Below are positions 1-30,302 of a DNA stretch of 34,334 nucleotides, piece by piece. How positions within the stretch are numbered: the stretch's first letter is position 1; each line of letters begins with the position of its first letter. A model generated the notes under the pieces. It made no database searches, was not told the origin of the DNA, and saw only the letters and a program-made list of their open reading frames with translations. This DNA comes from Caldilineae bacterium (lineage in GTDB: Bacteria > Chloroflexota > Anaerolineae > DTLA01). Made by a program: the position numbers and the translations under genes. The DNA lies in contig JBBIHX010000016.1 of assembly GCA_037446815.1 (NCBI GenBank), positions 1-34,334 of the forward strand, in the 5' to 3' direction.

Positions 1-132
1 GTTGGTGAAACGCATGGACACTGTCCTCGTGTGTCGTTGCGAGCGAAGCGAAGCAACCTCACGCCCCAGGGATTGCTTCGGGCGCTCCGCGCCCTCGCAA
101 TGACAAATACCAACAGACTTTGGAACCGAATC
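1..132 (+). mobile_element. MITE-like element type 1 (150-bp family), truncated by window start
   Basis: Near-identical to 7501-7650, 18444-18593 and 30108-30257; right end ccaacagactttggaaccgaatc; internal GTCGTTGCGAG...CTCGCAATGAC palindrome; first 18 nt missing. Confidence 0.8.
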
Positions 133-140
133 CCGCGGGC

Positions 141-169
141 TTGCCCTGCCCTGGGGGTTGTGATATACT
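141..169 (+). promoter_or_regulatory. sigma70-type promoter for GT4 gene
   Basis: TTGCCC(141-146)-17 bp-TATACT(164-169) with extended TGn. Confidence 0.6.
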
Positions 170-223
170 CGCGACACCGAGCCGGGGCGTTTTCGCTGCC
201 GGCGGCATCTTTGAGAGGGGCTT

Positions 224-1330
224 GTGAACGTCGCGATCGTCCACGACTGGCTGAATCAGATGGGCGGAGCCGAGGGGGTGCTGGAAGTCCTCATGGACAT
301 ATACCCGAACGCTCCGCTGTACACGTCCATCTACTGGCGCGAGGGGATGCCGGACGCGTACAAGCAGTGGGACATCCGCACCTCGTTTCTGGATCGCTGG
401 CCGCTGGTGAAGCGCAAGCACCAGGTATTCCTGCCCTTCTATCCCCTCGCCTTTGAGCGGTTTGACTTCGCGGGGTACGATGTTGTCATCTCCAACAAGA
501 GCGGCTTCTGCCACGGCATCATCACGCCGCCGGAGACGCTGCACATCTGCTACTGCCTGACGCCGACGCGCTACCTGTGGGACACGGCCAACTACATCCG
601 CCGCGAGGGGCTGGGGAAACTCGCCCAGGCCGCGCTGGTGCCGTTCCTGGCCCAGTTGCGCATGTGGGATCGCCTCGCTGCGGATCGCGTGGATGCGTTC
701 ATCGCCATCTCGCAGGCGGTGCGCCAGCGCATCGCCAAGTACTATCGGCGCGAATCGGTGGTCATCTACCCGCCGGTGCACACCGAGCGGTTTGAGGTGG
801 CCGCGAAGCACGAGGACTACTACCTCGTGGTGTCGCGCCTGGTGCCGTACAAGCGGATAGACCTGGCCGTGGAGGCATTCAACCGCCTGGGCAAGCCGCT
901 GGTCATCATCGGCGAGGGGCGCGACCGCAAGGCGCTGGAGGCCCTGGCGCGGCCCAACGTTACGTTCCTGGGGCGCCTGCCCTTTGAGCAGGTGCGCGAC
1001 CATATGGCCCGGTGCCGGGCGCTCATCTTCCCCGGCCTAGAGGACTTCGGCATCACGCCGGTGGAGGCGCAGGCGGCGGGCCGACCTGTCATCGCCTTCG
1101 CCGGCGGCGGCGCGCTGGATACGGTGGAAGACGGGCGGACGGGCATCCTGTTCCGCGAGCAGACGCCCGAGTCGTTGATGGAAGCGGTGGCGCGGTGCGA
1201 GCAGATGGAATTTGCCCCCGACGTGCTACGCGCCAATGCCGAGCGTTTCAGCGTGGCCGAGTTCCGACGACAACTGTCGGCGTTCGTGGCGCAGGCGTTG
1301 CAGGGGCGAGGTTCACCGCGGAGCGGCTGA
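224..1330 (+). CDS. glycosyltransferase family 4 (GT-B)
   Basis: N-terminal VAIVHDWLNQMGGAE, YLVVSRLVPYKRIDL, EDFGITPVEAQAAG motif; GTG start after gagagggg. Confidence 0.92.
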   Translation: MNVAIVHDWLNQMGGAEGVLEVLMDIYPNAPLYTSIYWREGMPDAYKQWDIRTSFLDRWPLVKRKHQVFLPFYPLAFERFDFAGYDVVISNKSGFCHGIITPPETLHICYCLTPTRYLWDTANYIRREGLGKLAQAALVPFLAQLRMWDRLAADRVDAFIAISQAVRQRIAKYYRRESVVIYPPVHTERFEVAAKHEDYYLVVSRLVPYKRIDLAVEAFNRLGKPLVIIGEGRDRKALEALARPNVTFLGRLPFEQVRDHMARCRALIFPGLEDFGITPVEAQAAGRPVIAFAGGGALDTVEDGRTGILFREQTPESLMEAVARCEQMEFAPDVLRANAERFSVAEFRRQLSAFVAQALQGRGSPRSG

Positions 1331-1391
1331 GATCGCAGAGGGAGTTGATTCTGGTTCTTCTTTCTCCGCGTCCTCTGCGCCTCCGCGGTGA
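1313..1391. repeat. palindromic repeat family F (tcaccgc.gag...ctc.gcggtga)
   Basis: tcaccgcggag 1313-1323 inverted at 1381-1391; overlaps GT4 stop; second copy 9800-9875. Confidence 0.65.
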
Positions 1392-1458
1392 GATCGTTTT
1401 CCACCGCGGAGCCGTTGGCTGCGCAGAGGGTAAGACGAACAACTCTTGGGGGGTGAAC

Positions 1459-2040
1459 ATGGTAACACGAGAGGAAGCCTGGCGGTTGCTCACCGAGCAC
1501 AACAGCGAACCGGAGCACATCAAGCACGCAATTGCCGTGGAGGCGGCAATGCGCGCCTACGCCCGCAAGTTCGGCGAGGACGAGGACCTGTGGGGCATCG
1601 TGGGCCTCATCCATGACCTGGACTACGAGGAGCACCCGACGATGGGGCCGGACGGGCACCCATTTGTCGGCGCGCAGATGCTGGAGGATTTGGGCTGGCC
1701 CGCTGTCATCGTGCGGGCGGTGCGCTCCCACGCCAACTACAGCGGCGTGCCCCGCCAGACGCCCCTAGAGAAGGCCCTGTTCGCCGTGGACGAACTCACC
1801 GGCCTGGTCATCGCCGTGGCTCTGGTGCGGCCCAGCAAGAACATCGCCGACGTAGAGGTCAAGTCGGTGCGCAAGAAGTGGAAGGACAAAGCCTTCGCCC
1901 GCGCCGTCAACCGTGAGGAGATTGAGCAGGGCGCGGCCGAACTGGGCGTGGACCTGGACGAGCACATCGCCACCGTGATTGAGGCGCTGAAGCCGGTGGC
2001 CGCCCAGTTGGGCATAGACGGCTCGCTGGCCCAGGGTTAG
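1459..2040 (+). CDS. HD/HDIG-domain metal-dependent phosphohydrolase (COG2316-like)
   Basis: H..AVEAAM, GLIHDLDYE, HPFVG, SHA, AVDELTG motifs; ATG 1459 after gggggtga. Confidence 0.88.
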   Translation: MVTREEAWRLLTEHNSEPEHIKHAIAVEAAMRAYARKFGEDEDLWGIVGLIHDLDYEEHPTMGPDGHPFVGAQMLEDLGWPAVIVRAVRSHANYSGVPRQTPLEKALFAVDELTGLVIAVALVRPSKNIADVEVKSVRKKWKDKAFARAVNREEIEQGAAELGVDLDEHIATVIEALKPVAAQLGIDGSLAQG

Positions 2041-2045
2041 GGGAG

Positions 2046-3050
2046 ATGGACGCGAGACAACGCGAATCGGCCTTGCCCATTGCCATCGTACTGGTGGCGC
2101 TGGTGGCCCTGACGGCGCTGGCGGCAATCCTGCCCAGGACGGCAGCACAGCCGGCAGTGGCGACAACTACCCCGCGGGCCGCGCCGACCGAAACGCCGTC
2201 GCCCTCGCGGCGCCCCACGCGCACGGCATCGCCCACGGCGACGATGACACCCAGCCCGACGTCCACGCCACTGCCGCCCATCATCCACATCGCGCAGAAG
2301 GGCGAATCGGTGGGCATCATCGCCAAGCAGTACGGCGTGTCCGAGCGGTCGGTGCTGGAGGCCAATGGCCTGGAGGCGGACTCCATCATCCGCATCGGCC
2401 AGGAGTTGATTATCCCGCGCCCGACGCCCACGCCGGAGCCTGCCGCGACGCAGCCGCCCACGGTGCCCGCCGGCACGCCATCGGCAACAGGCGCGGCCCC
2501 GCTGGCCCCTGGCGAGCAGACGTATACGGTAGAGTCGGGCGACACCCTTTCGGGCATCGCCAAGAAGTTCAATACTAACGTCAACCTGCTCATGAGCCGC
2601 AACAACATCAAAGACCCATCGCTCCTGCGGGTGGGCCAGGTGATCATCATCCCTGCGGGCACGCCTACGCCGCTGCCCACGCCCACCTTCCGGCCGACCA
2701 GCACGCCCACGCCCGGCCCGCCGTATGGCCCGCCTGCCCTGCTGTGGCCGCCGGATGGTACCGTGTTCCGAGGCGAGAGCGCGGTGGCGCTCGTGCAGTG
2801 GGCCTCGGTGGGATTGCTCGCCCCGGAGGAGTGGTACGTGGTGCGCGTGTACCGCGGCGACGACCTCATCGGCGAGCAGTGGACAAAGGCCACGGCGTGG
2901 CGGCTGCCTGTGGAGTTGCGCCCGCCGGCCGACGCCGCCGACCACCGCCTCATTTGGCAGGTGCTGGTCATGCGACAGGAGGGGCCGGAGCCGGGCAAGG
3001 GCACGGTGCTCGTGGCTCCGGGCGAGTCGCGCGGATTGGAGTGGTACTGA
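2046..3050 (+). CDS. membrane-anchored/secreted protein with two LysM domains and Thr/Pro linkers
   Basis: N-terminal hydrophobic segment; HIAQKGESVGIIAKQYGV and YTVESGDTLSGIAKKFNT LysM repeats; C-terminal beta-rich domain. Confidence 0.88.
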   Translation: MDARQRESALPIAIVLVALVALTALAAILPRTAAQPAVATTTPRAAPTETPSPSRRPTRTASPTATMTPSPTSTPLPPIIHIAQKGESVGIIAKQYGVSERSVLEANGLEADSIIRIGQELIIPRPTPTPEPAATQPPTVPAGTPSATGAAPLAPGEQTYTVESGDTLSGIAKKFNTNVNLLMSRNNIKDPSLLRVGQVIIIPAGTPTPLPTPTFRPTSTPTPGPPYGPPALLWPPDGTVFRGESAVALVQWASVGLLAPEEWYVVRVYRGDDLIGEQWTKATAWRLPVELRPPADAADHRLIWQVLVMRQEGPEPGKGTVLVAPGESRGLEWY

Positions 3051-3249
3051 TTGCACGGCGTTGCCGAGTGCAGTCCGTCGGCTCACCTGCTCTGCCGTAG
3101 GCCCAAGGGCGTGAGCCCGTGGAGGGCAGGCGCGTAGGCGGCTATCCCTAGCCGCCAGGGGGTTGGGCCGCGTCGGGTATGAAAACCCGACCTAGGGATG
3201 GAGGTTCAGCAGACTCCCTCGGTGGTGCTTGCATGTGGAGGTCTATCCC

Positions 3250-5079: not shown

Positions 5080-5991
5080 ATGATGACTCACGCGCACGAC
5101 ATGGCTCCGTGGCCCGACCTGGAGGCCCACGCCCGTAGGGTGGCAGTTGCGACGAGCGGGGTCTCGCTGTTTCTGTACGACACAGGCCCCGCGGAAGCCG
5201 CGCCGCTGCTCCTCATCCACGGCCTGGGGAGCGAGGCCGACACCTGGCGCTATGTCATCCCGCGCCTGACGCCGCAATTCCGCGTCATCGCGCCGGACCT
5301 GCCGGGCTTCGGCCGCAGCGACAAGCCACGGCGGGCCTACACCGTTCCGTTCTTCTGCGATGCGTTGCTCCAACTGCTGGACGCGCTGGGGATTGCGCGG
5401 GCCGGGCTTGTGGGGCACTCGCTGGGCGCGATCATCGCCCAGTCGCTTGCCCTGCGACTTTCCGAGCGCGTGGAGCGCCTAGTCCTGGTGGACGGGAGCC
5501 TGTTCGCCCCCTCGCAAGCCCTGGACATGGCGACGCTCCTGCTGCTCCTGCCCGGCGTGGGCGAGATGCTGTATCGGCGCTTCCAGCGCGACGCCGACGC
5601 CGCCTATCGTTCGCTGGAGCCGTACTACGCGCACCTGGACGGCTTGCCCGAGTCGGAGCGGGAATACCTGCGGCGGCGGGTGAACGAGCGCGTCCGCGAC
5701 GAGAATCAGCGGCGCGCGTTCTTCTCCGCGTTTCGGCGGCTGGCCCTGTACCTGCCGGCGCAACAGCGCGGCCTTCGGGAGGCGATGGCGCGTCTGACCG
5801 TGCCGACGCTCGTCATCTGGGGCGAGGCCGACCGCATCAATCCTGTGGCGAATGGGCGGGCGTTGGCGGCGCTGCAACCCGCGGCGCGTCTGGTTGTGGT
5901 GCCGAGCGCGGGCCACAACGTGCAGGAGGAGAAGCCGCACGCCGTCGCCCAGGCCATCCTGGACTGGTCGGGGGCCGCGGCCAGTGCGTAA
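5080..5991 (+). CDS. alpha/beta fold hydrolase
   Basis: LLLIHGLG, PDLPGFGRS, GHSLG nucleophile elbow, WGEAD, AGH. Confidence 0.92.
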   Translation: MMTHAHDMAPWPDLEAHARRVAVATSGVSLFLYDTGPAEAAPLLLIHGLGSEADTWRYVIPRLTPQFRVIAPDLPGFGRSDKPRRAYTVPFFCDALLQLLDALGIARAGLVGHSLGAIIAQSLALRLSERVERLVLVDGSLFAPSQALDMATLLLLLPGVGEMLYRRFQRDADAAYRSLEPYYAHLDGLPESEREYLRRRVNERVRDENQRRAFFSAFRRLALYLPAQQRGLREAMARLTVPTLVIWGEADRINPVANGRALAALQPAARLVVVPSAGHNVQEEKPHAVAQAILDWSGAAASA

Positions 5992-6024
5992 CGTGCGACG
6001 CACTTCGGAAGTGCGTCGCACGTT
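5990..6024. repeat. 35-bp palindrome family B
   Basis: aacgtgcgacgcactt-cgg-aagtgcgtcgcacgtt; six copies in window. Confidence 0.9.
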
Positions 6025-7456: not shown

Positions 7457-7485
7457 ATTATATGCCTGCGGCCCCCGCTCTCCAA
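7457..7485 (-). promoter_or_regulatory. sigma70-type promoter for MFS gene
   Basis: TTGGAG(7485-7480)-17 bp-TATAAT(7462-7457). Confidence 0.6.
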
Positions 7486-7500
7486 ACGTTCACAGGACGC

Positions 7501-7650
7501 GACGCGGCTTCATCTTGTGTCGGTGAAGCGCATGGACACTCTCCTTGTGTGTCGTTGCGAGCGAAGCGAAGCAACCTCACGCCCCAGAGATTGCTTCGGG
7601 CGCTCCGCGCCCTCGCAATGACAAATACCAACAGACTTTGGAACCGAATC
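7501..7650 (+). mobile_element. MITE-like element type 1
   Basis: 150 bp; ends gacgcggcttcatcttgtgtcgg / ccaacagactttggaaccgaatc; flanks caggacgc and cagaaagc (6/8 match). Confidence 0.8.
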
Positions 7651-7741: not shown

Positions 7742-8686
7742 CTACGGGACGATGAGCGTCCCCGTCTCGCCGCGCAGGGCGCGCTCAATATTCTCCGGGT
7801 TGGTGATGATGGCCTGCTTCCCGCCCGCCTCCAGGAACCAGATGATGGCCTGGATCTTGGGGAGCATGGAGCCCTTTGCGAAGTGCCCCTCGGCCATGTA
7901 CTGCTTGGCCTCGGCAACGGTCATGCGGTCTATGGCCTTCTGGTCCGGCTTGCCGTAGTTCAGGTACACCTTCTCCACGGCGGTGGAGATGAGGAACAGG
8001 TCGGCCTTGATGCTTCGGGCCAACAGCGACGAGGCGTAGTCCTTGTCAATCACGGCGGCGATGCCTTCCAGTTCGCCCCGTTCGTTCTCCACGACGGGGA
8101 TGCCGCCGCCGCCCACGGTGATCACCACAAACCCCTTGCGAATCAACTCCTCTACCGCGTCCTGCTCCTTGACGACCTTCGGAAGGGGTGAAGCGACAAC
8201 CCGGCGCCAGCCGCGTCCGGCGTCCTCTACCACGTGCCAGCCCTCCTGGTCGCGGCGGCGAAGGGCCTCCTCTTCGGTCATGAACGAGCCGATGGGCTTG
8301 GTTGGGTTCTGGAAGGCGGGGTCGTTGCGATCCACGATGACCTGGGTAACGACGGTTACCGCCTGCTTCTTGATGCCGCGGCGCAGGAATTCGTTCTGCA
8401 GGTTCTGCTGGAGCATGTAGCCGATGGCGCCCTGGGTGTCGGCCCCGCATACGTCCAGCGGCACCTCGTGCAGTTCGTGGCGCGCCAGTTCGCTGCGGCG
8501 CAGGATGAACCCCACCTGCGGGCCGTTGCCGTGGCCGATGGCCACATCCCAGCCCTGCTCAATCATGCCGGCGATGTGATGGCAGGTCTCCTTCGCGGCC
8601 TGGTACTGGTCGGGCACGGTCTGGTGGTTCTTGTCCTTGATGAGCGAGTTGCCGCCAATGGCAACCACTGCGACCTTCTTCGTCAT
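7742..8686 (-). CDS. arcC: carbamate kinase
   Basis: VVAIGGNSL, HGNGPQVG, PTKPIG, GRGWRRVVASP, GGGGIPV, AVIDKD, GSMLPK. Confidence 0.96.
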   Translation of the reverse strand: MTKKVAVVAIGGNSLIKDKNHQTVPDQYQAAKETCHHIAGMIEQGWDVAIGHGNGPQVGFILRRSELARHELHEVPLDVCGADTQGAIGYMLQQNLQNEFLRRGIKKQAVTVVTQVIVDRNDPAFQNPTKPIGSFMTEEEALRRRDQEGWHVVEDAGRGWRRVVASPLPKVVKEQDAVEELIRKGFVVITVGGGGIPVVENERGELEGIAAVIDKDYASSLLARSIKADLFLISTAVEKVYLNYGKPDQKAIDRMTVAEAKQYMAEGHFAKGSMLPKIQAIIWFLEAGGKQAIITNPENIERALRGETGTLIVP

Positions 8687-8720
8687 GGGGATGCACTCCT
8701 TTGTATGATGTGTCTATGGC

Positions 8721-9764
8721 CTACAGAAGTCCCGACATCGTCAGCGCCATGACGGCCTTCTGCACGTGCAGGCGGTTCTCGGCGACGTCGTAGATGCACG
8801 AGCGCGGGCCGCTGGCGACCTCGTCGGTAACCTCATGCCCGCGGTCAATGGGCATCGGATGGGTGAAGATGGCGTTGTCGGTCAGGCGCATCTTCTCGGC
8901 GTCGCAAATCCACTCGGTCAGTTTCAGCGCCCGCTCAATCTCCTGCTGCTTGAGGAACTCGCCGTCCTTGTATGCTTCGGGGCTCATCCAGTGGCGCGAG
9001 TACACCACATGGGCGCCCACATACCCCTCGCGCACGTCGGTGGTCTCCTCAAACGACGTGCCGTTGGCGCGGCAGTTGGCCTTGGTCCACTCAATGACCT
9101 GCGGGTCCAGCGGGTACCCCTCAGGGTGCGCCAGGGTTACGTGCATCCCAAAGCGGGAGCCGATGAGCAGCGCCTCCTGCACCGAGCACCAGGAGCGGGC
9201 CAGCGCGCCATGTCCCCAGGTTACGAGCAGTTTCTTGCCCTTCAGCACGCTCATGTCCAGCCCTTGCCCAGGCCCCTTGCCGTACCACTCGGCCCAGCCC
9301 ATGATGTCGGCCAGGCCCTGGAATGGGTGGTACTTGTCGTGAGCCATGGAGAAGACAGGCATCCTGGCCCAGTAGGCGTACTCGCGGATGAGGTCATCGC
9401 CCTCGCCATACGCGCCGATCTTGTCCTCCAGGATGCGGATGCCCAAGCCCGCGGCGTAGCGATCCATCACCTTGGCGGCATCCTCCACGGTCTCGCCCGC
9501 GGTGGTCGCCGTCTTCAGGCGCATGGCCTTCGGTTCCAGGAACTGCGCGTGCCCGCCTAGTTCGGTGGCTGCGCATTCAAAACTCTGGCGCGTGCGCACC
9601 GACGGGTTGTAGAAGAACATGAAGAATGTCTTGTTCTGCAGGAGACTGGTGAAGCGGGGATTGAAGCGGTCGCGCTTCATCTTCGCAGCCAGGTCCAGCA
9701 CCGCATCCAGTTCATCCTTGCTCCATTCCTGCGTCGTAATCAGGTCCTTGCCGTAGAGATCCAT
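8721..9764 (-). CDS. transcarbamylase (OTCase/knotted family), divergent, substrate unknown
   Basis: NPSVRT, HPFQGLAD, AENRLHVQKA; atypical TWGHGALARSW, YSRHW and THPMP (not HCLP). Confidence 0.85.
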   Translation of the reverse strand: MDLYGKDLITTQEWSKDELDAVLDLAAKMKRDRFNPRFTSLLQNKTFFMFFYNPSVRTRQSFECAATELGGHAQFLEPKAMRLKTATTAGETVEDAAKVMDRYAAGLGIRILEDKIGAYGEGDDLIREYAYWARMPVFSMAHDKYHPFQGLADIMGWAEWYGKGPGQGLDMSVLKGKKLLVTWGHGALARSWCSVQEALLIGSRFGMHVTLAHPEGYPLDPQVIEWTKANCRANGTSFEETTDVREGYVGAHVVYSRHWMSPEAYKDGEFLKQQEIERALKLTEWICDAEKMRLTDNAIFTHPMPIDRGHEVTDEVASGPRSCIYDVAENRLHVQKAVMALTMSGLL

Positions 9765-9799
9765 CTTCTGCCTCCCAACAGGAAAGATTCAAGAATCCA

Positions 9800-9875
9800 C
9801 TCACCGCAGAGGGCGTGGAACACGCAGAGGGAGAAAAGCGTTCCTCCCTCTGTGGCCTGCGCGCTCTGCGGTGAG
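9800..9875. repeat. palindromic repeat family F between the transcarbamylase genes
   Basis: ctcaccgcagag 9800-9811 inverted at 9864-9875. Confidence 0.65.
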
Positions 9876-9897
9876 CCTACTGTAGGTTGTGTCCGTC

Positions 9898-10968
9898 CTA
9901 GGCCATGACCAGGCTCATGACGGCTTTCTGGACGTGCAGGCGGTTCTCGGCCTCATCGTACGCAGCCGATAGCCACGGGCGCTCCTTGGAACGGGTCGTG
10001 TTGTCAATGACCTCGTCGGTTACCTCGTACCCGCGGTCGCAGGGCAGGCAGTGCAGGTAGATGCTCTCGGGATCGGTGAGACGCATCTTCTCGGCGTCGC
10101 AAATCCAGTCCTTGTGGCTGTCAAAGATGGCCTGGGTCTTCTTGGGATCGTCCTCGCCGACCGGGGGCTTGAAGATGGGCACGGCGCACCAGGCCTTGGG
10201 ATAGACGACGTGGGCGCCCTTGAACGCCTCGCGCATGTCGTGGCTGATCTTGAACGAGCCGCCGTTGTGCCGCGCGTTGGCCTCGCACGCCGCCAGGACT
10301 TCGGGATCCAGTTCCATGCCCTCGGGGTGCGCCAGCGTAACGTTCATGCCCATCATGGTAGCGGCGATGATGGCGCTCTGGGGCACGGCGCGGGGCTTGT
10401 GAATGCTGGGCGAGTAGGCCCAACTCATGACGAAGTTGACGCCCTTGAACGTGCCGAACTTCTCCTTGACGGTGAGGATGTCGGCCAGGGCCTGGAATGG
10501 ATGGTACTTGTCGTCCTCCATGTTGAGCACGGGGATGTCGGCCCAGTAGGCGAAGTTGCGGATCAACTCGTTGGCGCCGCCGTACACCCAGTCCACCGGA
10601 TCGCCATAGCAGCGGATGGCGATGGCGTCGCCCATGCGAGCCAGCACGCGCGCCACGTCGGAGACGCGCTCGGTGGAGTAGGCCACTTCCTTGCCGGGGA
10701 GCGCCGGGGTGTAAATCTTGCCCGGGTCCAGGTAGTGGGCATGGCCGCCCAGTTGAGTCATGCCGGCCTCAAATGAGTTGCGGGTGCGCAGGCTCTGGTT
10801 GTAGAAGATCATGAACAGCGTGCGGGCGCGAAGCAGGTGGTCGTGCGGTTCGCGCATGGCGTAGCGCCGCTTTAGGTCCAGCGCCACGTCCAGGATGGTC
10901 TCAACCTCTTCGCGCGTCCAGTCCAACAGGGTGATGAAATCCTTGCCACGAAACGTTTCGGTCTTCAT
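9898..10968 (-). CDS. knotted transcarbamylase, YgeW/AOTCase-like
   Basis: NQSLRT, HPFQALAD, SWAYSPSIHKPRAVPQS Pro-rich loop, YPKAW, HCLP; ATG 10968 best spaced from aaggag. Confidence 0.87.
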   Translation of the reverse strand: MKTETFRGKDFITLLDWTREEVETILDVALDLKRRYAMREPHDHLLRARTLFMIFYNQSLRTRNSFEAGMTQLGGHAHYLDPGKIYTPALPGKEVAYSTERVSDVARVLARMGDAIAIRCYGDPVDWVYGGANELIRNFAYWADIPVLNMEDDKYHPFQALADILTVKEKFGTFKGVNFVMSWAYSPSIHKPRAVPQSAIIAATMMGMNVTLAHPEGMELDPEVLAACEANARHNGGSFKISHDMREAFKGAHVVYPKAWCAVPIFKPPVGEDDPKKTQAIFDSHKDWICDAEKMRLTDPESIYLHCLPCDRGYEVTDEVIDNTTRSKERPWLSAAYDEAENRLHVQKAVMSLVMA

Positions 10969-11001
10969 AAGCATCTCCTTTTGTAAAGTTGTTTTCGTTT
11001 C

Positions 11002-11742
11002 CTAACGCAAGGGAGCAATGCGGCGAATCAAATGGAACTTGAATACACTGGGCAAGAAGTAGTTCTGCGAGTAGCCGACAATCTGATTGTCCTGGGTGTA
11101 ACTGACCTCCTCTAGCAACAGGAGCACGGTGCTCGGCTTGACGCGCAACTTGGCGGCGACGGAGGAGTCGGCGCGGGTTGCGATGATGTTGGTCCAGGCG
11201 AAGGCAAGGGGCACCTGGCGCTCCAGCAGGTAGTCCAACACCGAACCCTTGAACGAGGCGCGCAGTGTGGCGATGTCCGTAACCCATGCGGGCAGCACGT
11301 CGTACATGTAGGCGGCGATGACGCCGTTGGTAACCTTGGTGCGGCCTACGGTGATGACCGTTTCGCCTGGGGCGATTCCCAGGCGCGAGGCGATTTCGCG
11401 CGGGGCCGGTTCCTCGCGGATTTCCAAATCTTCGGTCGTGCAGACGAGGCCCATGCGTCGGGCAAGGGTGTCCAGGCTCTCCAGTTGCTCCAGCCCGCTG
11501 TCTATGACATGGGTTGGCGCGTTGATGAAGGTCCCCAACCCTCGGCGGCGGGTGATGAGGCCCTTGTCCTCAAAGGCGCGCAGGGCCTCGCGGAGCGTGG
11601 CGCGGGAGATGCCCAGCCGCTGGGCCAGTTCCGGCTCCGGCGGCAACCGATCGCCGACACGGTAGGTCCCGTCCTGGATGAGACGATTGAGCGCCTCCTC
11701 GGCCTGGAGGTACAGGGGACGGGAGTCGTATTTCACTCGCAT
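11002..11742 (-). CDS. GntR family (HutC/UTRA) transcriptional regulator
   Basis: PLYLQ, GDRLPPEPELAQRLGISRATLREAL, RRRGLGTFI; C-terminal UTRA-like domain. Confidence 0.93.
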   Translation of the reverse strand: MRVKYDSRPLYLQAEEALNRLIQDGTYRVGDRLPPEPELAQRLGISRATLREALRAFEDKGLITRRRGLGTFINAPTHVIDSGLEQLESLDTLARRMGLVCTTEDLEIREEPAPREIASRLGIAPGETVITVGRTKVTNGVIAAYMYDVLPAWVTDIATLRASFKGSVLDYLLERQVPLAFAWTNIIATRADSSVAAKLRVKPSTVLLLLEEVSYTQDNQIVGYSQNYFLPSVFKFHLIRRIAPLR

Positions 11743-11754
11743 CCGGACACCCCT

Positions 11755-11801
11755 TTGTCTGATGTCTGACATATTATACACGCGCGCCGCGGGGCCGTCA
11801 A
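11755..11801 (-). promoter_or_regulatory. sigma70 promoter with candidate GntR operator
   Basis: TTGACG(11801-11796)-17 bp-TATAAT(11778-11773), followed by atgtcagacatcagacaa (palindrome atgtc-a-gacat; tcagaca twice). Confidence 0.75.
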
Positions 11802-11817
11802 ATCGCCAGCGGTTGCG

Positions 11818-11991
11818 GAATCGGTTCCAAGGGCTGTTGGCATCTACCGTCATTCTGAGCGGCGAAGCCGCGAAGAATCTCACCCCTCACCCCAACCCTC
11901 TCCCGAAGGGCGAGGGCGTGTCGCCTTCGGCTCAGCATGACAGAGAGGGAGGCGGCGCGCGGGACAGACCAACACAGTTTGGAACCGAATC
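11818..11991. mobile_element. MITE-like element type 2 (same TIRs, different cargo)
   Basis: Ends gaatcggttccaagggctgttgg / ccaacacagtttggaaccgaatc; cargo gtcattctgagc...gctcagcatgac with nested ccctctccc..gggcgaggg hairpin. Confidence 0.72.
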
Positions 11992-11999: not shown

Positions 12000-12150
12000 G
12001 AATCGGTTCCAAAGTCTGTTGGTAACCGTCATTGCGAGGGCGAGGAGCAGCCGAAGCAATTTCCGGGACGTGCGATTGCTTCGCGTCGCTCGCAATGACA
12101 TACAAGTGGAGTGGGCATGCGGTTCGCCAACACAAGATGAAGCACCGAAC
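12000..12150 (-). mobile_element. MITE-like element type 1, reverse orientation, diverged
   Basis: gaatcggttccaaagtctgttgg...gtcattgcgag...ctcgcaatgac...ccaacacaagatgaa; 8 bp from previous element; right end degenerate. Confidence 0.72.
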
Positions 12151-12158
12151 CGGCCGGC

Positions 12159-12187
12159 TTGACATCCTCACGACGCAGGGCTATCCT
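12159..12187 (+). promoter_or_regulatory. sigma70-type promoter for GNAT gene
   Basis: TTGACA(12159-12164)-17 bp-TATCCT(12182-12187). Confidence 0.68.
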
Positions 12188-13181: not shown

Positions 13182-13311
13182 ACGATCTCCTTGTGCGAAG
13201 TTGCGGTAGTTTATCACGCGCCCCGCCATCGCGCCAAACGCACGGCGCCCGGGCCAATCCCCGCCGCCGTCATCCTGAGCCGCGAAGGGCGAAGCAGGAC
13301 GGGAGGGGGAC

Positions 13312-13346
13312 AACGTGCGACGCACCTGCGAGGTGCGTCGCACGTT
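13312..13346. repeat. 35-bp palindrome family B
   Basis: aacgtgcgacgcacct-gcg-aggtgcgtcgcacgtt. Confidence 0.9.
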
Positions 13347-13380: not shown

Positions 13381-16300
13381 TCACTCCGCGCCGGTAACGG
13401 GCAGGCGCGCGGGGGCCGCCAGCACATCGGCGTCGGCGCGCACCAGCAGGCGGTAGCCGCCGACGTAGGGCGCGCGCTGGGCGTACTGGCTGACCACGCC
13501 CACGATTCGGAGCACGTCTCCGCGCGCGATCTTGGGCCGTTGGGCCTGGCCGCCCTCGCGAAAGTACACCCGCGCCGGCCCCGACCCGTCGTCCAGCCAT
13601 AGGGCGCGACTCTCCACGTCCATCACGCGCCCCACCAGCGCGACAAGCCGTCCTTCCCATGCCTCGCCCATGTCGCCGGTGCGGATGCCGACCGGAGCGA
13701 TGGCAATGTCGGCATCAAAGACCTGCAAATCGCCCGGGACGGACACATAGAGTTGCAGTTCGCCATGGTAGTCGCGCAGGCGGCCCGTGGCCCGCAGCCA
13801 CTGACCTTCCACCAGCGGCGGATACTCGCCCTTGGCAAGGTACACCGCCAACCCCACGTTGCGGTCCTGGAGGAACACCAGCCGCTCGCTCACCGTTCCC
13901 GGCGGCGCGGTCAGTTGCCCCTGCGTGATGAGCCGTGTCCCCGGCGGCTGGATTCGCGCCAGGGGCAGGTCCATGAAGGGCGGGCCAGGCTGCGGCGTGG
14001 GCGGGGGAAGGGCGCGATTCGCCTCGCCCGGCGTAACCGCGCAGTCCCGCGTCCACTCGCCCACCCCATCGGGGATGCGGCCAAATGAGCGGTCGTACCC
14101 GGGTGTCTTCGTGTACACGAAGCGATCGGCCGGCGTGCCGTGGGGCCTCAGCAGTTGCACCGTGTCGCCGCCGTTGTTCAGCGCGATTCCGGTCTGGCGG
14201 CCGAAGAGCACCAGGTAGCCGCCCGGCGGGACTTCGCTCCCTGGCGGCAGGGTGTACGGCTTGCTGCCGCCATCGGGCGCGTCGTCCAGCACCCAGCCGG
14301 CGAGATTCACCGCGCGCGCCTCCAGATTCCGCAGTTCTATCCATTCATCGTGTCCGGAATCCAACTGCCCATCCCCGTCCCAATCCGTGGCATGGGGCGC
14401 GGGCAGGATTTCGTTCAGAACCACCCGCGCCAGAAGGTCGGGAGTTGAAGTGCCCGTGGGTGTCGGGCTGGGCGTGCGGGTCGCCGTGCGGGTGTAGGTG
14501 GCCGTCCGCGTGGGAGTGGCCGTGCGGGTGNNNNNNNNNNNNNNNNNNNNNNNNNNNNNNNNNNNNNNNNNNNNNNNNNNNNNNNNNNNNNNNNNNNNNN
14601 NNNNNNNNNNNNNNNNNNNNNNNNNNNNNNGCGGGTCGCCGTGCGGGTGTAGGTGGCCGTCCGCGTGGGAGTGGCCGTGCGGGTGTAGGTGGCCGTCCGC
14701 GTGGGAGTGGCCGTGCGGGTGGGGCTGGGTGTGCGCGTCGGAGTCGGCGATCCCGGCGCGTTGGCGTGTCCCGGCGATGGCGGGTAGGCGGCCGTCCACC
14801 CGCCCGACTCCGTGCGGCTCCACGAGCGGTCGTAGCCCATGGGCGGATAGGCGGTCTCATCTACCAGGGCGCCATCGGGCCCCAACAAGCGCACGCTATC
14901 CCCGTCGTTGTTCAGTGCCAGGCCGGTATCGCGCTTGAACAGGACGAGATAGCCGCCCGGCTCCACCCACAGGTCGGCGGGCGCACGCCACGGCTTGCTG
15001 CCTCCATCTGCCGCGTCGTCCAACTCCCAGCCGGCCAGGTTGATCGCGACCGGGCCGCAGTTGAACACCTCTACCCACTCGTCGTCGCTGGAGGGAGTGC
15101 CATCGGAATCCCAATCCACGTAACGGGGCGCGGGGAGAATCTCGTTCAGTCGCACCGTGCGGGGATACGGGGTGCTGGTGGGCGTAACGCTTGGCGTCGG
15201 GGTCGGCGCAGGCGTCTCCGTCGGCCAGGGCGCCGGAGGCTCGGTCGCTGTGAGCGTGGCGGTGGGCGTGTCTGTGGGCGCCGAAGTGTCCGTCGGCGTC
15301 GGCGTGGGCGAAGGCGTCTCCGTCGGCGAAGGCGTGCGCGTCGGCGTCGGCGTGCACGTAACCGGCAGGTTCGGGCCTCCGGGTGAAGGCGCGTATTCCC
15401 ACGTCCAGGCGCCATCGGCCTGCTTGCTGTATGCGCGGTCGTAGTCGGCCTTGCCGTAGGTTACCTTCTCCACCAGGACGTTATCCGGGCGCAGGAAATG
15501 CACTTCGTCGCCGTCGTTGTTCAGCGCGATGCCCGACTGCTTCTGGTAGATGACGAGATACCCCCTGCCCCAGATGAACGTATAGGGCGGGATGCGATAC
15601 TCCTTGGAGCCGCCATCCCGTCGGTCGTCCAACTTCCACCCGCCCACGTCCACCGGATACCACGCAGAGTTGTAGATTTCAATGTACTCGTCGTCTGGCG
15701 AAGGCGTGCCGTCTCCGTCGTAATCCACCCAACGCGGGGCGGGCATGATTTCGCTCAAGTGCAGGGTGGTGGGATAGGGTGTCTTTGTGAGCGTCGGCGT
15801 GGCCGTGAGCGTCGCCGTCCTGGTGGGAGTAGGCGTGCGCGTCGGCGTGGGCGTCCTTGTCGGCGAGGGCGTGCGGGTGAGGGTGGCGGTTTTGGTGTCC
15901 GTTGGCGTCCTGGTGAACGTCGGCGTGCGCGTAGACGTTGGAGAGGGAATGTCGGTGCTCGTGGCGGTGGGCGTGGCGGTGGCGGGGAGATTGGGGCCGC
16001 CAGGCGAGGGCGGATAAAGGAGCGTCCACACGCCCGCGCCATCCGCCGTGCGGCTGTACGATGCGTCGGGCAGCGATGTGTAGTACGTGTGCGCGTCGGC
16101 CACCGTGCCGTCGGGCCGCAGCAGCCGCACCGTGTCGCCCGCGTTGTCCAGGTTGATGCCCGTCGCCCTGCGGAAGAACAGGAGAAAACCGCCGGGCTGA
16201 ATCCACGTGCCCGCGGGGATGACGTAAGGCGCGGAGCCGGCATCCCGGATGTCGTCCAGCATCCAGCCGCCGAGGTCAACCGGCTGATCGCTTGCGCAGA

Positions 16301-16481
16301 AGAGTTCTATCCACTCGTCCAGGTGGTTTGCAACGCCATCGCCGTCCCAGTCCACGGCGACCGGCGCGGGGAGATACTCGTTGAGGACGACGGGCGGCGC
16401 TTGGGCGAACGCGAAGGACCGCAAGAGCGTATTCGCCAGGAACACGGAGACGACAGGCAACCCCCACGCCCAGCGGCGCAT
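13381..16481 (-). CDS. secreted protein with four lamin-tail domains, Thr/Pro linkers and C-terminal OB-fold-like region (one gene across scaffold gap)
   Basis: Signal peptide; four L(N/S)E(I/Y)xPAP...DxDxDG...DE(W/Y)(I/V)E...LxNxGD repeats; removing 100 N plus the 55-bp duplicated overlap gives 2946 bp in frame (981 aa). Confidence 0.82.
14476..14685. other. scaffold gap with 55-bp duplicated flanks inside 36-bp tandem repeat
   Basis: 14476-14530 is identical to 14631-14685. Confidence 0.9.
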
Positions 16482-16957: not shown

Positions 16958-17054
16958 CGCGCCGCCTCCTCATGTGCCCGCTGCCCCACACCCATAGCAT
17001 ACCGCCATTGTGTTTCGTTGTCAAGCGGTTCAAGATCGGTGCCAAATAAAAAGG

Positions 17055-17138
17055 TGCCGAAGGAGGGATTTGAACCCACATGGGCGATTGCCCACTGCGC
17101 CCTGAACGCAGCGCGTCTGCCAATTCCGCCACTTCGGC
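17055..17138 (-). tRNA. tRNA-Leu(CAG)
   Basis: GCCGAAG/CTTCGGC acceptor stem, TGGCGGAATTGGCAGACGC D arm, CTGCG-TT CAG GG-CGCAG anticodon arm, long variable arm, GGTTCAAATCC; followed by CCT, so CCA not fully encoded. Confidence 0.96.
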
Positions 17139-17150: not shown

Positions 17151-17179
17151 ATGGTAATGCGTTTTGGCCGATTTGTCAA
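17151..17179 (-). promoter_or_regulatory. sigma70 promoter for tRNA-Leu
   Basis: TTGACA(17179-17174)-17 bp-TACCAT(17156-17151). Confidence 0.72.
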
Positions 17180-17193: not shown

Positions 17194-17466
17194 CGATTGG
17201 TTTCAAACTCTGTTGGCATCTACCGTCATTCCGAGCGGCGAAGCCGCGAGGAATCTCGCGCCCCAATCCGTCCAATCCGTGCTATCCGTGGATGCAACCC
17301 CGAAGATGCTTCGCCTTCGCTCGCGATGACAGATGGGGGAATGCCGTGCGCTCGGCGCAGTCGGGGGCAGCGCCGTCATGTAGGGCGACCGGCCGGTCGC
17401 CCTACATGCTCGCAATGACGGAGGGCGCAACAACGTGCGACGCACCTTCGAGGTGCGTCGCACGTG
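17194..17466. repeat. composite repeat mosaic starting with a degenerate MITE end
   Basis: cgattggtttcaaactctgttgg TIR-like end, family C gtcattccgagcggcgaagccgcg, 9-bp periodic atccgtg.., GTAG REP 17380-17405, family B 17432-17466. Confidence 0.75.
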
Positions 17467-18329: not shown

Positions 18330-18443
18330 ATCCGATACCTCCTCCAGAACATCATGATGGCGTTCACAACATACTAACCCCCTACCCGTCCTGAAGTTGC
18401 GAACCGCCACGCCTCCTGTCGTCGGTTCGGCGCCAGAGTGGGT

Positions 18444-18593
18444 GAGTCGGTCTCATCTTGTGTTGGTGAACCGTAGGCGCACTCTCCTCGTGTGTCGTTG
18501 CGAGCGAAGCGAAGCAACCCCACGTCCCAGGGATTGCTTCGGGCGCTCCGCGCCCTCGCAATGACAAATACCAACAGACTTTGGAACCGAATC
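18444..18593 (+). mobile_element. MITE-like element type 1 with perfect 8-bp target site duplication
   Basis: 150 bp; gagtgggt at 18436-18443 and 18594-18601. Confidence 0.85.
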
Positions 18594-18601
18594 GAGTGGG
18601 T

Positions 18602-18718
18602 GGGCATCTACTGTCGTCCTGAATCGCCAAGCGCCGAAGAATCTCCCCCTATCCGCGCAATCCATGTTATCCGTGGATACCGTTTCTCTATTCGCGTGGA
18701 TTCGCGTTATCCGTGGAC
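18602..18718. repeat. composite repeat unit (family C plus 9-bp periodic motifs)
   Basis: Reverse-complement homolog of the 119-bp unit at 26718-26836. Confidence 0.65.
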
Positions 18719-18743
18719 AACGATGATGTTCCCGAACGCGGCT

Positions 18744-21134: not shown

Positions 21135-21470
21135 GGCGGTATCCACGGATAGCACGGATGGCGGAAAGTAGGGCAAATTGCCAATTTGCCCCACGAGTTT
21201 CCTCGGCGCCCCGCGTCTCAGACCGACGGTTGCATGTGGGACCGACCCGCCGGTCGCCCTTACACTACCCGTGCGGCGGTATCCACGGATAGCGCGGATT
21301 GCGCGGATAGGGGCATGCGCTCAACGTGCGACGCACCTCCGAGGTGCGTCGCACGTTGTCCCTCCATCCCATTGTCATGCTGAGCCGAAGGCGAAGCATC
21401 TCCAGGCTTGCATCCACGGATAGCGCGGATTGCACGGATTTGGGCGCGCGATCCTTCGCGGATTCTCCCC
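21135..21470. repeat. composite repeat mosaic
   Basis: Three ccacggatagc(a/g)cggat periodic blocks, GTAG REP 21168-21194, family B 21323-21357, family C gtcatgctgagccgaaggcgaagcatct. Confidence 0.75.
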
Positions 21471-21477
21471 TGCGGTT

Positions 21478-21627
21478 GACTCGGTTCCAAAGTCTGTTGG
21501 TAGCCGTCATTGCGAGGGCACGCAGTGCCCGAAGCAGTCTCCGGGGCGTGGGATTGCTTCGCTCCGCTCGCAATGACACACGAGGACAGCGTGCATGCGG
21601 TTCACCAACGCAAGATGAAACCGACTC
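21478..21627 (-). mobile_element. MITE-like element type 1, reverse orientation
   Basis: 150 bp; gactcggttccaaagtctgttgg / ccaacgcaagatgaaaccgactc; no clear TSD. Confidence 0.8.
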
Positions 21628-21642: not shown

Positions 21643-21672
21643 TTGCGCGGAACCTTGCTTTGGGTCTATAAT
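21643..21672 (+). promoter_or_regulatory. sigma70-type promoter for nfeD operon
   Basis: TTGCGC(21643-21648)-18 bp-TATAAT(21667-21672). Confidence 0.62.
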
Positions 21673-26527: not shown

Positions 26528-26980
26528 CGCGAATCGCGCGAACGCACGCGAATGGAGAACGTGCGACGCACCTCGGAGGTGCGTCGCACGTTGTCATGCC
26601 GAACGCCCGAGTCTAAAGCCTCGGGCTGAGTGCACAAAGCCCTACGGGCTGACAGCCCCGAAGGGGCTTTGGTCGTTCAGCGCGGGGGTTTAGCCCCGCG
26701 CGGTCATTGCAGGCGAAGCGAATCGCGCGAACCCACGCGAATACAGAAACGGTATCCACGGATAGCACGGATAGCGCGGATTGGAGAAGGCGAGATTCTT
26801 CGCGGCTTCGCCGCTCAGAATGACAGCACCTGAACCGCGAATCGCGCGAATCCACGCGAACAGACAAACGGTATCCACGGATAGCACGGATGGCGCGGAT
26901 AGGACGAGGTGAGATTCTTCGCGGCTTCGCCGCTCAGAATGACAGCACCTGGACCGCGAATCACGCGAACCCACACGAAT
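26528..26980. repeat. composite repeat mosaic including 119-bp tandem duplication
   Basis: Family B 26558-26592; cccgag..ctcggg, agccccgaaggggct and cgcgggg..ccccgcg hairpins; units 26718-26836 and 26837-26955, partial third copy. Confidence 0.8.
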
Positions 26981-27031
26981 GGGGGTGGGGCGGGGGCTTC
27001 CCCTGATGCCACGTGCGAGGGGCTGCTCCGC

Positions 27032-27241
27032 GCGCCTGCCGGTGGCCCTACTGCGAGGGCATGACGAAGTCGCGTCCGACGATGATNNNNNNNNNNNNNN
27101 NNNNNNNNNNNNNNNNNNNNNNNNNNNNNNNNNNNNNNNNNNNNNNNNNNNNNNNNNNNNNNNNNNNNNNNNNNNNNNNNNNNNNNGCGCCTGCCGGTGG
27201 CCCTACTGCGAGGGCATGACGAAGTCGCGTCCGACGATGAT
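27032..27241. other. scaffold gap with 55-bp duplicated flanks
   Basis: 27032-27086 is identical to 27187-27241. Confidence 0.9.
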
Positions 27242-28552: not shown

Positions 28553-28615
28553 CCAGCGTTCCAGAATCAAGATAGAAAGCCCCGGGTGCAGATAGACGAT
28601 CACGGGGCAGTTGGC

Positions 28616-28643
28616 ATTATATCCATTTGACGCCGGACGTCAA
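28616..28643 (-). promoter_or_regulatory. sigma70-type promoter for LCP gene
   Basis: TTGACG(28643-28638)-16 bp-TATAAT(28621-28616). Confidence 0.68.
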
Positions 28644-28657
28644 CTAACGGTTCCCTG

Positions 28658-28880
28658 GGATTCGCGCGATTCGCTTCGCCCGCCATGACCGCGCGGGGCT
28701 AAACCCCCGCGCTGCATGACCCAAGCCCGTAGGGCTTTGTGCACTTAGCCCGAGGCTTCAGACTCGGGCGTCCGGCGGGCGGGCACACCTCACCCCCGGC
28801 CTGCGGCCTCCCTCTCTTCGCCCACGACGAGGTGCCGGGCATGACAACGTGCGACGCACCTCCGAGGTACGTCGCACGTT
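28658..28880. repeat. composite repeat mosaic, inverted homolog of 26558-26733
   Basis: Same module order in reverse complement; family B at 28846-28880. Confidence 0.8.
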
Positions 28881-28905
28881 ACCTGCTTTGCTCGCAATGG
28901 CGGTG

Positions 28906-29640: not shown

Positions 29641-29664
29641 GGCCTGCTCCCGAAGATGCTGCGA

Positions 29665-29859
29665 TTAGTTGTTCTCGCTCTTGTCCTTCGCAGACGGCTC
29701 CGCGCTCTCGGTCTTCTTCGGCTCGCCGGTGGATGCTTCACGGAAGCCACGGATCGCCTTGCCCAGGGCAGACCCGATCTCCGGCAGCCTCCCGACGCCG
29801 AAGATGATCACGACGATGACCAGGATCAGGATCAGTTCGGGCACGCCAAGTTGTGGCAT
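29665..29859 (-). CDS. tatA: twin-arginine translocase subunit TatA/E
   Basis: [41 protein letters not shown] after ggagg. Confidence 0.94.
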
Positions 29860-29896
29860 ACCAACCTCCCATTCGTTGTTTGCAGCCGCACGCGCG

Positions 29897-29926
29897 ATTA
29901 TAGCACGTTGCGGCGTACCTATGCAA
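29897..29926 (-). promoter_or_regulatory. sigma70-type promoter for tatA
   Basis: TTGCAT(29926-29921)-18 bp-TATAAT(29902-29897), extended TGn. Confidence 0.7.
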
Positions 29927-29942
29927 AAACCCCCGCGCCGAA

Positions 29943-30099
29943 GATTCCGTTCCGAAGTCTGTTGGTGTCTGTCATTGCGACGGCGCGGCGCCCTCACCCC
30001 AGCCCTCTCCCGAAGGGCGAGGGCGTATCGCCTTCGGCTCAGCATGACAGAGCGGGGAGGCGGCGCGTGGGGCAGATCAACACAAGATGAAACCGAGTC
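29943..30099. mobile_element. MITE-like element type 2
   Basis: Ends gattccgttccgaagtctgttgg / tcaacacaagatgaaaccgagtc; cargo largely shared with 11818-11991. Confidence 0.72.
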
Positions 30100-30107
30100 C
30101 CACTGCC

Positions 30108-30257
30108 GACTCGGTTCCATCTTGTGTTGGTGAAACGCCTGGACACTCTCCTCGTGTGTCGTTGCGAGCGAAGCGAAGCAACCTCACGCCCCGGCGATTG
30201 CTTCGGGCGCTGCGCGCCCTCGCAATGACAAATACCAACAGACTTTGGAACCAAGTC
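30108..30257 (+). mobile_element. MITE-like element type 1
   Basis: 150 bp; gactcggttccatcttgtgttgg / ccaacagactttggaaccaagtc; flanks ccactgcc and cccctgcc (7/8 match). Confidence 0.85.
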
Positions 30258-30273
30258 CCCCTGCCGCGCCGTT

Positions 30274-30302
30274 TTGATATGTCCCCTGTGCGGTGCTATA
30301 AT
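30274..30302 (+). promoter_or_regulatory. sigma70 promoter for DUF151-dnaB operon
   Basis: TTGATA(30274-30279)-17 bp-TATAAT(30297-30302), extended TGn. Confidence 0.8.

Follow-up and report, generated by a model that had tools for sequence, protein, structure and literature searches.

We report a family of MITEs (miniature transposable elements with inverted repeats) that sit non-randomly just upstream of outward-facing σ70-type promoters, a placement supported both in a 34,334-bp window from a Caldilineae bacterium (Chloroflexota; contig JBBIHX010000016.1, positions 1 to 34,334) and, independently, in other genomes. The window, by which we mean this whole stretch at its full length, provides all data from the source genome; it is ~65% G+C and contains two runs of N (14531-14630 and 27087-27186). 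In our interpretation, the elements form a promoter-targeting family moved by a DDE (Asp-Asp-Glu) transposase of the Mutator/IS256 superfamily, which would insert them at a fixed, lineage-specific offset from the promoter with RNA polymerase as the ruler (probability about 0.8). There is good support for the core of this interpretation, namely that the MITE family targets promoters and belongs with a Mutator-like transposase.

Repeat finding and alignment resolved nine MITE copies in the window, seven of them complete, and showed that old, degenerate copies are common. Six copies of ~150 bp each belong to one type (type A), two have the same ends but a different interior (type B), and one, starting at position 17194, is degenerate. 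The elements are non-coding, 144-174 bp in length and multicopy (nine in 34 kb). Their ends are 23-nt imperfect inverted repeats (GAnTCGGTTyCA-N5-TGTTGG) that are inverted at every complete copy and come in two flavors differing in the five variable bases, AAGTC or TCTTG (hereafter the AAAGTC and ATCTTG types). The end motif as formulated earlier matches the window 15 times at ≤3 mismatches, compared to 0.05 matches expected from shuffles. The ends read 5'-G...C-3' and so carry the terminal C that belongs to the feature definition of Mutator-like transposases (Guerillot et al., 2014; PMC3942029; here and below, what we attribute to this paper refers to its accessible sections). All nine copies are intergenic and lie between Pfam-supported genes, as expected from the preliminary description of this DNA, which had held that the elements avoid disrupting genes. 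On folding, the type A copies give a long hairpin (z -3.9, -2.6, and -3.5); the type B copy tested for folding forms no comparable hairpin (z -0.36). A role of the copies as terminators or insulators is conceivable; no T-tract terminator call in the window covers a whole element.

Target duplications were assessed for 25 real end pairs from the window and from loci in other genomes, excluding one spurious pairing (17194/18593). The flanking 8-mers are perfectly duplicated in 10 of the 25 pairs and agree at 6/8 or more in 12, whereas none of 78 shifted controls reaches 6/8, and the duplicated 8-mers share no common consensus. With their terminal inverted repeats and target duplications of 8 bp, these sequences are genuine non-autonomous transposons, which confirms their original identification as a mobile element.

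To describe the flanks, promoter-like sites were scored against TTGACA, a spacer of 16-18 nt and TATAAT, with A2 and T6 required and a cut-off of ≥9/12. Only 18 such sites occur among 68,086 positions on both strands of the window, and 10 of them, corresponding to eight promoters, adjoin element ends. Among the 12 ends that face unique sequence, eight have a predicted outward promoter at an offset of 0-17 bp, versus 86 of 22,598 random window positions (0.38%; binomial P 2e-17), and six have one at 14-17 bp, versus 21 of 22,598 (0.093%; binomial P 6e-16). At least one end faces a promoter in six of the seven complete copies. A stricter independent scan that also required 4/6 matches per hexamer returned 13 sites in the window, six of which adjoin element ends. 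All eight adjoining predicted promoters are correctly oriented toward a Pfam-supported gene or a tRNA-Leu gene. The individual distances to the -35 box given in the preliminary description were all reproduced by flank reading and by the scorer, with an ambiguity of ±1 at 7501 and 29943, where the best scorer frame lies 1 bp farther out. The same holds for its claim that either end type can face the promoter, given that ATCTTG ends (at 7501 and 21627) and AAAGTC ends (at 29943 and 30257) both lie 15-16 bp from promoters. Two ends in the window lie at 7-8 bp, but they do not count as independent exceptions. One, at 12151, is the outer end of a tandem pair that at its opposite end is 16 bp from the gntR promoter; for the other, at 132, the opposite end of the copy falls outside the window.

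Two pairs of copies in the window (11991/12000 and 30099/30108) stand back to back exactly 8 bp apart, an arrangement absent from the loci listed from other genomes. When the copy at 30108-30257 inserted, it duplicated the 8-mer that now separates it from the copy at 29943-30099. Thus, both copies ended 16 bp from the same -35 box, and this reuse of the target at 30100-30107 amounts to a natural replicate that supports positional targeting. The same explanation was considered for the pair at 11991/12000 and rejected, given that the bases right of 12151 do not repeat the intervening 8-mer (3/8, judged by eye).

An end-motif scan of species genomes provided an independent sample, and the counts from other genomes given here and below are for the loci listed from it. 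These include 41 family members, 39 of which come from metagenome-assembled genomes (MAGs) labeled Chloroflexota, Anaerolineae, Anaerolineales, or Caldilineales; the remaining two hold complete elements and are in bins labeled Planctomycetota and Solirubrobacterales, and 21 single hits in other phyla were treated as chance controls. The closest of the listed loci, L027 from an Anaerolineae MAG, holds a copy that is ~85% identical to type A (judged by eye), is flanked by a perfect duplication, and lies 15 and 9 bp from promoters. Flanks of at least 50 nt were available for 56 family ends once duplicate flanks had been removed, and a ≥9/12 promoter is present at an offset of 0-16 bp in 18 of them, compared to 203 of 34,558 random positions in the same loci (0.6%; P 1e-26). 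Extending the search to 40 bp adds a single end, such that 18 of 19 promoters lie at 0-16 rather than 17-40 bp (P 1.5e-6; offsets 2, 3, 3, 4, 4, 5, 5, 5, 5, 7, 7, 8, 13, 14, 15, 15, 15, 15, and 24). The opposite strand gave promoters at 2 of 56 ends, and the chance hits in other phyla gave none (0/21). When the window and the other loci are combined, 19 of 26 complete copies have at least one promoter-facing end and two have promoters at both. Promoters within 16 bp also adjoin 7 of the 10 elements with perfect duplications, which are presumably the youngest.

The offsets are genome-specific and fall into two classes, 13-16 bp or 2-9 bp (mode 5). Long offsets were found in DYEI (15, 15, and 15), JARYMK (15), JAIMBM (15 and 14), CP070811 (13-14), and the window (14-16), and short offsets in JAUWJD (4-5 bp in all six elements), JBBINH (3-5), CAVZDU (7-8), and DATKWG (3 and 7). 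The spacing of 15-16 bp described originally therefore stands for the window but not for the family as a whole. Misplaced ends were ruled out as a source of the 2-9 bp class, given that in L043, L060, L052, and L057 the same terminal GA directly adjoins perfect duplications. A role for the third end base (GAT, GAC, GAA, or GAG) or for the end type in setting the offset was also ruled out, since the window shows all variants at 15-16 bp. In L043 and L060, the perfectly duplicated 8-mer includes the first 3-4 bases of the -35 box; thus, the promoter is older than the insertion. More generally, the -35 and -10 boxes are located in unique, mutually non-homologous flanks. Aligned flanks of the 13-16 bp class are T-rich at columns 14-17 (TTG) and show no motif in the remaining first 13 nt.

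A candidate autonomous partner was detected in other Chloroflexota. At L022 (2001-3522), the same ends and a perfect 8-bp duplication enclose a 1,522-bp element with one open reading frame (ORF) of 427 aa. Among the loci listed, tblastn located this protein (54-64% identity) enclosed by or next to such ends in L052, L002, L009, L055, L034, L017, L054, and L031, although the L017 copy is internally deleted and the L031 copy is a fragment. The L022 protein matches the Pfam family PF00872 (Transposase, Mutator family; 25.1 bits versus a cut-off of 21), as do all ten family members examined, and has an N-terminal zinc-ribbon domain (Pfam). The expectation of a Mutator-superfamily transposase with these terminal repeats was thus borne out. 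For the transposase itself, the parallel drawn with the ISLre2/TnGBS type was borne out only at the level of the superfamily, as neither the ISLre2 nor the ISKra4 model of NCBIfam matches the L022 protein at E ≤ 1 and the nearest models are those of IS256 and ISH6. The latter two score 31.7 bits (cut-off 150) and 31.4 bits (cut-off 240), respectively, so the protein falls short of strict IS256 membership. Across ten members down to 27% identity, the IS256 model (best E 2.4e-17) and the ISH6 model each match 10/10, compared to 3/10 for ISLre2 (best E 6.5e-5) and 1/10 for ISKra4 (E 0.0077).

The ten-sequence alignment has invariant CxxC...CxxC, D170, D233, C254-x2-H257, and E353. We infer that D170, D233, and E353 form the DDE triad, including which aspartates would be catalytic. 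Guerillot et al. describe D-D-E together with C/D(2)H as the hallmark of Mutator-like transposases (PMC3942029), and the residues D170, D233, C254-x2-H257, and E353 fit it. In the predicted structural model (mean predicted local distance difference test score 68, above 80 in the core), helices at 255-336 make up a long helical insert before the glutamate. The best fold match in the PDB is the ISCth4 transposase (6xg8 and 6xgx; E 5e-8, template-modeling score 0.34-0.43), and a sequence-profile search of the PDB returned the same ISCth4 entry (“Mutator family transposase”; E 0.011). Searching the PDB with phmmer gave no meaningful match, and tblastn of plasmid records gave no match. The family is large: clustering at 90% identity gives more than 1,615 clusters, most of them on ~1.5-kb contigs, and at 50% identity there are 414 representatives, many of which are fragments. 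Judging from these sequence comparisons, the transposase is a distinct IS256-like clade of the Mutator/IS256 superfamily, nearest to IS256 and ISH6, and may coincide with an already named ISfinder element.

We propose that the MITEs are moved in trans by the 427-aa zinc-ribbon DDE transposase, which would be supplied by 1.5-kb insertion sequences (ISs) with the same ends. Transposition may proceed by copy-out through a circular intermediate, on the model of IS256-type elements, for which such an intermediate has been reported (PMC3942029). Insertion would be non-random: with either end facing the promoter, the element would enter upstream of the -35 box of a housekeeping-sigma promoter at a set distance that differs between lineages, ~15-16 bp in the present genome and ~5 bp in certain other Chloroflexota. 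The promoter-bound holoenzyme, through sigma region 4 or the alpha C-terminal domain, may position the transpososome and act as the ruler, and the element would then be pasted in with an 8-bp stagger. Contact with the polymerase initiation complex was proposed for TnGBS by Brochet et al. (discussed in PMC3942029). The outcome would be a safe landing site where genes and core promoters are spared, and copies and debris could accumulate upstream of strong promoters, where recombination between copies may reshuffle promoter flanks. As put forward in the preliminary description, the copies may also replace UP-element regions and mark promoters throughout the genome.

Several observations weigh against this proposal. 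All promoters discussed here are predicted from consensus matches only, and the at least 62 loci obtained by the end-motif scan are an arbitrary sample, none of them from the window's genome. More than half of the listed ends (37 of 56) lack a ≥9/12 promoter within 40 bp, and 7 of the 26 complete elements from the window and listed loci face a promoter at neither end. One of these, at 18444-18593, is the only copy in the window with a perfect duplication. The longest open frame points outward at 15 of 21 promoter-facing ends and 16 of 34 other ends, a difference that is not significant (P 0.098) and a measure that is crude in GC-rich DNA. No recognizable duplication accompanies 13 of the 25 end pairs, including pairs in which both ends are at promoter distance (29943-30257, at 16 and 16 bp, L001, and L051). 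Our guess is that such pairs arose through recombination between copies inserted at different promoters. Searching the window with the 427-aa protein (tblastn) revealed no such transposase, and trans-mobilization in this genome is therefore assumed. Lastly, the two offset classes could have causes other than contact with the polymerase.

In a rival reading, the transposase recognizes promoter DNA directly, by the sequence or shape of the -35 box or the upstream region, with no polymerase contact. The promoter itself is the only feature common to the flanks, with T-rich columns 14-17 in the 13-16 bp class, the N-terminal zinc ribbon could read DNA, and ISH6, a relative, targets an AT-rich 8-mer (PMC3942029). 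However, the targeted -35 boxes are degenerate (TTGGAG, TTGCGC, TTGCAT, and TGGCGC) and yet the offset is sharp, and the lack of a consensus among duplicated 8-mers also speaks against sequence recognition. The present data are compatible with direct reading as well as with a polymerase tether; we consider direct reading rather unlikely. Random intergenic insertion followed by selective removal of damaging copies is improbable. It would account for the intergenic location of all window copies, for the ends that lack promoters (37 of 56 listed), and for the many old, degenerate copies, but selection would give a boundary rather than a peak. Instead, 18 of the 19 listed promoters within 40 bp concentrate at 0-16 bp (P 1.5e-6), and offsets within a genome are sharp (4-5 bp in 6/6 JAUWJD elements, 14-16 bp at six window ends). 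Nor does selection explain why one 8-bp target was used by two different copies, or why 7 of 10 elements with perfect duplications already face a promoter within 16 bp.

Outward promoters are known from certain other MITEs and ISs, e.g., the Correia element (PMC10969869, accessible sections), which raises the question of whether the present elements bring or create the promoters themselves, through an outward promoter in the end or a hybrid -35 box. The overlap between duplication and -35 box in the 2-9 bp class would be compatible with this. Yet the overlapping bases belong to the duplicated, pre-existing target (L043 and L060), the hexamers of the 13-16 bp class lie beyond the 8-bp duplication in mutually unrelated flanks, and no ≥9/12 outward site occurs inside the element ends, all listed window sites starting outside; we regard this origin of the promoters as very improbable. 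We give almost no credence to the 23-nt motif being a fixed operator of a regulon rather than a transposon end. A constant distance to the -35 box and conservation across many Chloroflexota genomes could be expected of an operator. What speaks against one is that the motifs are paired in inverted orientation at spacings of 100-260 bp or ~1.5 kb, with 8 bp of unrelated sequence directly duplicated on either side and, in the long form, with a transposase gene between them. Promoter-targeted transposition, probably with the polymerase as ruler, is the reading we retain.

Known systems offer partial parallels. Among named elements, ISKra2, ISKra4, ISKra5, and ISKra6 presumably come from a Chloroflexi genome. 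Elements of the ISLre2/TnGBS and ISKra4 groups insert 13-17 bp upstream of sigmaA -35 boxes and generate 8-9-bp repeats (PMC3942029). According to the same source, insertion occurs in both orientations where the repeats are near-symmetric, and it is random with respect to promoters in the case of IS256. The paper also describes a signature motif of the promoter-targeting ISLre2 and ISKra4 transposases, in which a conserved Asp lies between domains N1 and N2. Guerillot et al. (2014) also list Chloroflexi among the phyla that hold the p-MULT 4 transposases and name ISKra2/4/5/6 (PMC3942029). This ISKra4 group (p-MULT 4) resembles the present family in having promoters on both sides, nearly identical inverted repeats, 8-9-bp repeats, and Chloroflexi hosts (PMC3942029). 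It differs in that the transposase described here fails the ISKra4 model, the elements are non-coding MITEs, and a second offset class of 2-9 bp exists. The ISLre2/TnGBS group (p-MULT 3) shares a Mutator-like DDE transposase, insertion 15-17 bp upstream of the sigmaA -35 box, 8-9-bp repeats, and a terminal C (PMC3942029). Six window ends show this spacing (14-16 bp), but several other genomes do not (2-9 bp). Moreover, ISLre2/TnGBS elements insert in a single orientation with the right repeat by the promoter and are found almost only in Firmicutes, as far as the accessible sections describe them, whereas here both ends are used and the hosts are Chloroflexota; the present transposase also fails the ISLre2 model.

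Shared with the IS256 family (p-MULT 1, including ISCth4) are 8-bp duplications and a D..D..E arrangement with C(2)H, and the N-terminal four-cysteine domain is associated by NCBIfam with IS256 variants. On the other hand, the score obtained here is far below the family cut-off, and insertion of IS256 is random relative to promoters (PMC3942029). The Correia element of Neisseria is likewise a small inverted-repeat element located immediately upstream of genes, but it carries its own promoters (PMC10969869, accessible sections), whereas here promoters are in unique flanks and older than the insertion. A more distant parallel, drawn by Guerillot et al. (PMC3942029), is yeast Ty3, whose integrase is placed by the initiation complex at polymerase III start sites; Ty3 is a different class of element in another host domain, and a protein contact in the present case would be by analogy only.

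The word MITE is absent from the main text of PMC3942029, as far as accessible, and the accessible part of a 2024 review of prokaryotic MITEs (PMC10969869) does not mention IS256, ISLre2, or Chloroflex. A 2024 MITE preprint (10.1101/2024.01.18.576219) has no mention of Chloroflex, promoter, IS256, or Anaerolinea. No further promoter-targeting family appears in the accessible portions of a 2022 IS survey (PMC9208149) or of a more recent preprint (10.1101/2025.07.22.666184). In the full-text literature searched, neither a description of this family nor promoter targeting for this transposase clade or for MITEs was found. The preliminary remark that no such description is known from this lineage is therefore too broad, given the ISKra4-group precedent of 2014 with Chloroflexi listed (PMC3942029), but it holds for the clade and for MITEs within the literature searched. 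Overall, the data support promoter-proximal targeting, known for ISLre2/TnGBS and ISKra4, in another transposase lineage and in MITE form; the clade is set apart from both groups by profile models.

Targeting of promoter-upstream sites is one of the few known cases in which bacterial transposons choose a functional landmark over a sequence. That it occurs in a clade failing both the ISLre2 and the ISKra4 model points to convergence or, alternatively, to a targeting module that is older and portable. The natural variants at ~5 and ~15 bp provide a contrast that could reveal what is being measured, and the MITE form offers many independent insertions per genome and a 150-bp substrate convenient for assays. 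In Chloroflexota represented solely by metagenomes, for which there are no transcription start maps, element ends could mark sigmaA promoters. Where copies pile up upstream of strong promoters, recombination hot spots that swap promoters between genes are likely. We advance only tentatively, and without expecting all of it to hold, a broader version of these ideas. In it, the clade would be a third independent Mutator-like lineage (IS256/ISH6-like, with a zinc ribbon) with holoenzyme-tethered integration and a ruler of ~5 or ~15 bp, i.e., one helical turn apart. Its MITEs would occupy most strong housekeeping promoters in some Anaerolineae genomes and their ends would serve as promoter markers in uncultured Chloroflexota.

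The individual copies and their neighboring promoter-like sites are as follows, with protein-coding genes named from Pfam matches. A minus-strand type A copy (1-132) is cut by the window start and terminates in an AAAGTC-type end at 132; 8 bp beyond it, TTGCCC-17-TATACT (141-169, plus strand) lies upstream of a glycosyltransferase ORF (224-1330). The plus-strand type A copy at 7501-7650 (150 bp; flanking 8-mers 6/8) is 15 bp from TTGGAG-17-TATAAT (7457-7485, minus strand), upstream of an MFS transporter gene (6094-~7432, minus strand). At 11818-11991, a 174-bp type B copy (plus strand; flanking 8-mers 5/8) has its end at 11818 located 16 bp from TTGACG-17-TATAAT (11773-11801, minus strand; 11/12), upstream of a GntR/UTRA regulator. 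Exactly 8 bp after it is a plus-strand type A copy (12000-12151) with a right end made degenerate by a 2-bp insertion, and 7 bp beyond 12151 is TTGACA-17-TATCCT (12159-12187, plus strand), upstream of a GNAT acetyltransferase gene. The degenerate, type B-related copy (17194-17370, plus strand) has three mismatches in its left end and a barely recognizable right end whose coordinate is approximate; TTGACA-17-TACCAT (17151-17179, minus strand), 14 bp from 17194, is upstream of the gene for tRNA-Leu(CAG) (17053-17138).

The type A copy at 18444-18593 (plus strand), which has no promoter at either end, is flanked by the perfect 8-bp duplication GAGTGGGT (18436-18443 and 18594-18601) and is inserted in debris of an older copy. 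Another plus-strand type A copy (21478-21627) abuts older-copy debris on its left side and has no duplication (2/8). At 15 bp from its end at 21627 is TTGCGC-18-TATAAT (21643-21672, plus strand), upstream of nfeD (ATG at 21693). The 157-bp type B copy at 29943-30099 (plus strand; no duplication, 3/8) is 16 bp from TTGCAT-18-TATAAT (29897-29926, minus strand), upstream of tatA. It is followed after 8 bp by a minus-strand type A copy (30108-30257), for which the duplication at 30100-30107 and 30258-30265 agrees at 7/8. From the end at 30257, a spacing of 16 bp leads to TTGATA-17-TATAAT (30274-30302, plus strand; 11/12, with TG before the -10 box), upstream of a bifunctional-nuclease-domain gene and dnaB.

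The type A copies at 18444-18593 and 21478-21627 are set within or beside debris (18594-18720 and 21386-21477) from older copies of the 17194/11818 kind, which suggests repeated insertion into the same upstream zones. The type B interior includes a module, CCCTCACCCC...GGGCGAGGG, at 11884-11926 and 29990-30030, which recurs in inverted orientation at the end of the window (34292-34334) and may represent a further small element that nests within type B.

Other repeats are also present in the window. A ~35-nt palindrome with a perfect stem, AACGTGCGACGCACC...GGTGCGTCGCACGTT, occurs at six intergenic positions (5979-6024, 13301-13346, 17421-17466, 21312-21357, 26547-26592, and 28835-28880). Its first bases follow the end motif in L004, with a looser match in L033, and it may be a shuffled MITE module or a hairpin resembling repetitive extragenic palindromic sequences. 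A different repeat family, with ends unlike those of the MITEs, has inverted copies at 28638-28776 and 26598-26741 and starts 7 bp upstream of the -35 box of a strong predicted promoter (TTGACG-16-TATAAT, minus strand) of a LytR-CpsA-Psr gene; other elements may share the promoter-upstream niche. In the regions 26718-26955 and 21137-21450, we noted a 119-bp unit in tandem (92% identity) together with short repeats of the CGGATAGC/CGCGAATC type, which are scattered over several intergenic regions.

Among the coding regions, a gene cluster on the minus strand (7742-11883) includes two adjacent carbamoyltransferase paralogs (OTCace), an amino-acid-kinase-family gene, and the GntR/UTRA regulator; in its predicted gene content it resembles an arginine or agmatine catabolic set. 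A large minus-strand ORF (13381-16481), interrupted by a gap of 100 N (14531-14630), encodes three lamin-tail domains (PF00932) and contains 18-nt periodic repeats as well as repeated modules of ~600-730 nt. At 30861-34292, dnaB is followed by a gene with a DnaB_2 (DnaD-like) domain and then by an IstB/DnaC-like ATPase ORF, which contains an internal duplication (33245-33406 versus 33821-33982; 76% identity).

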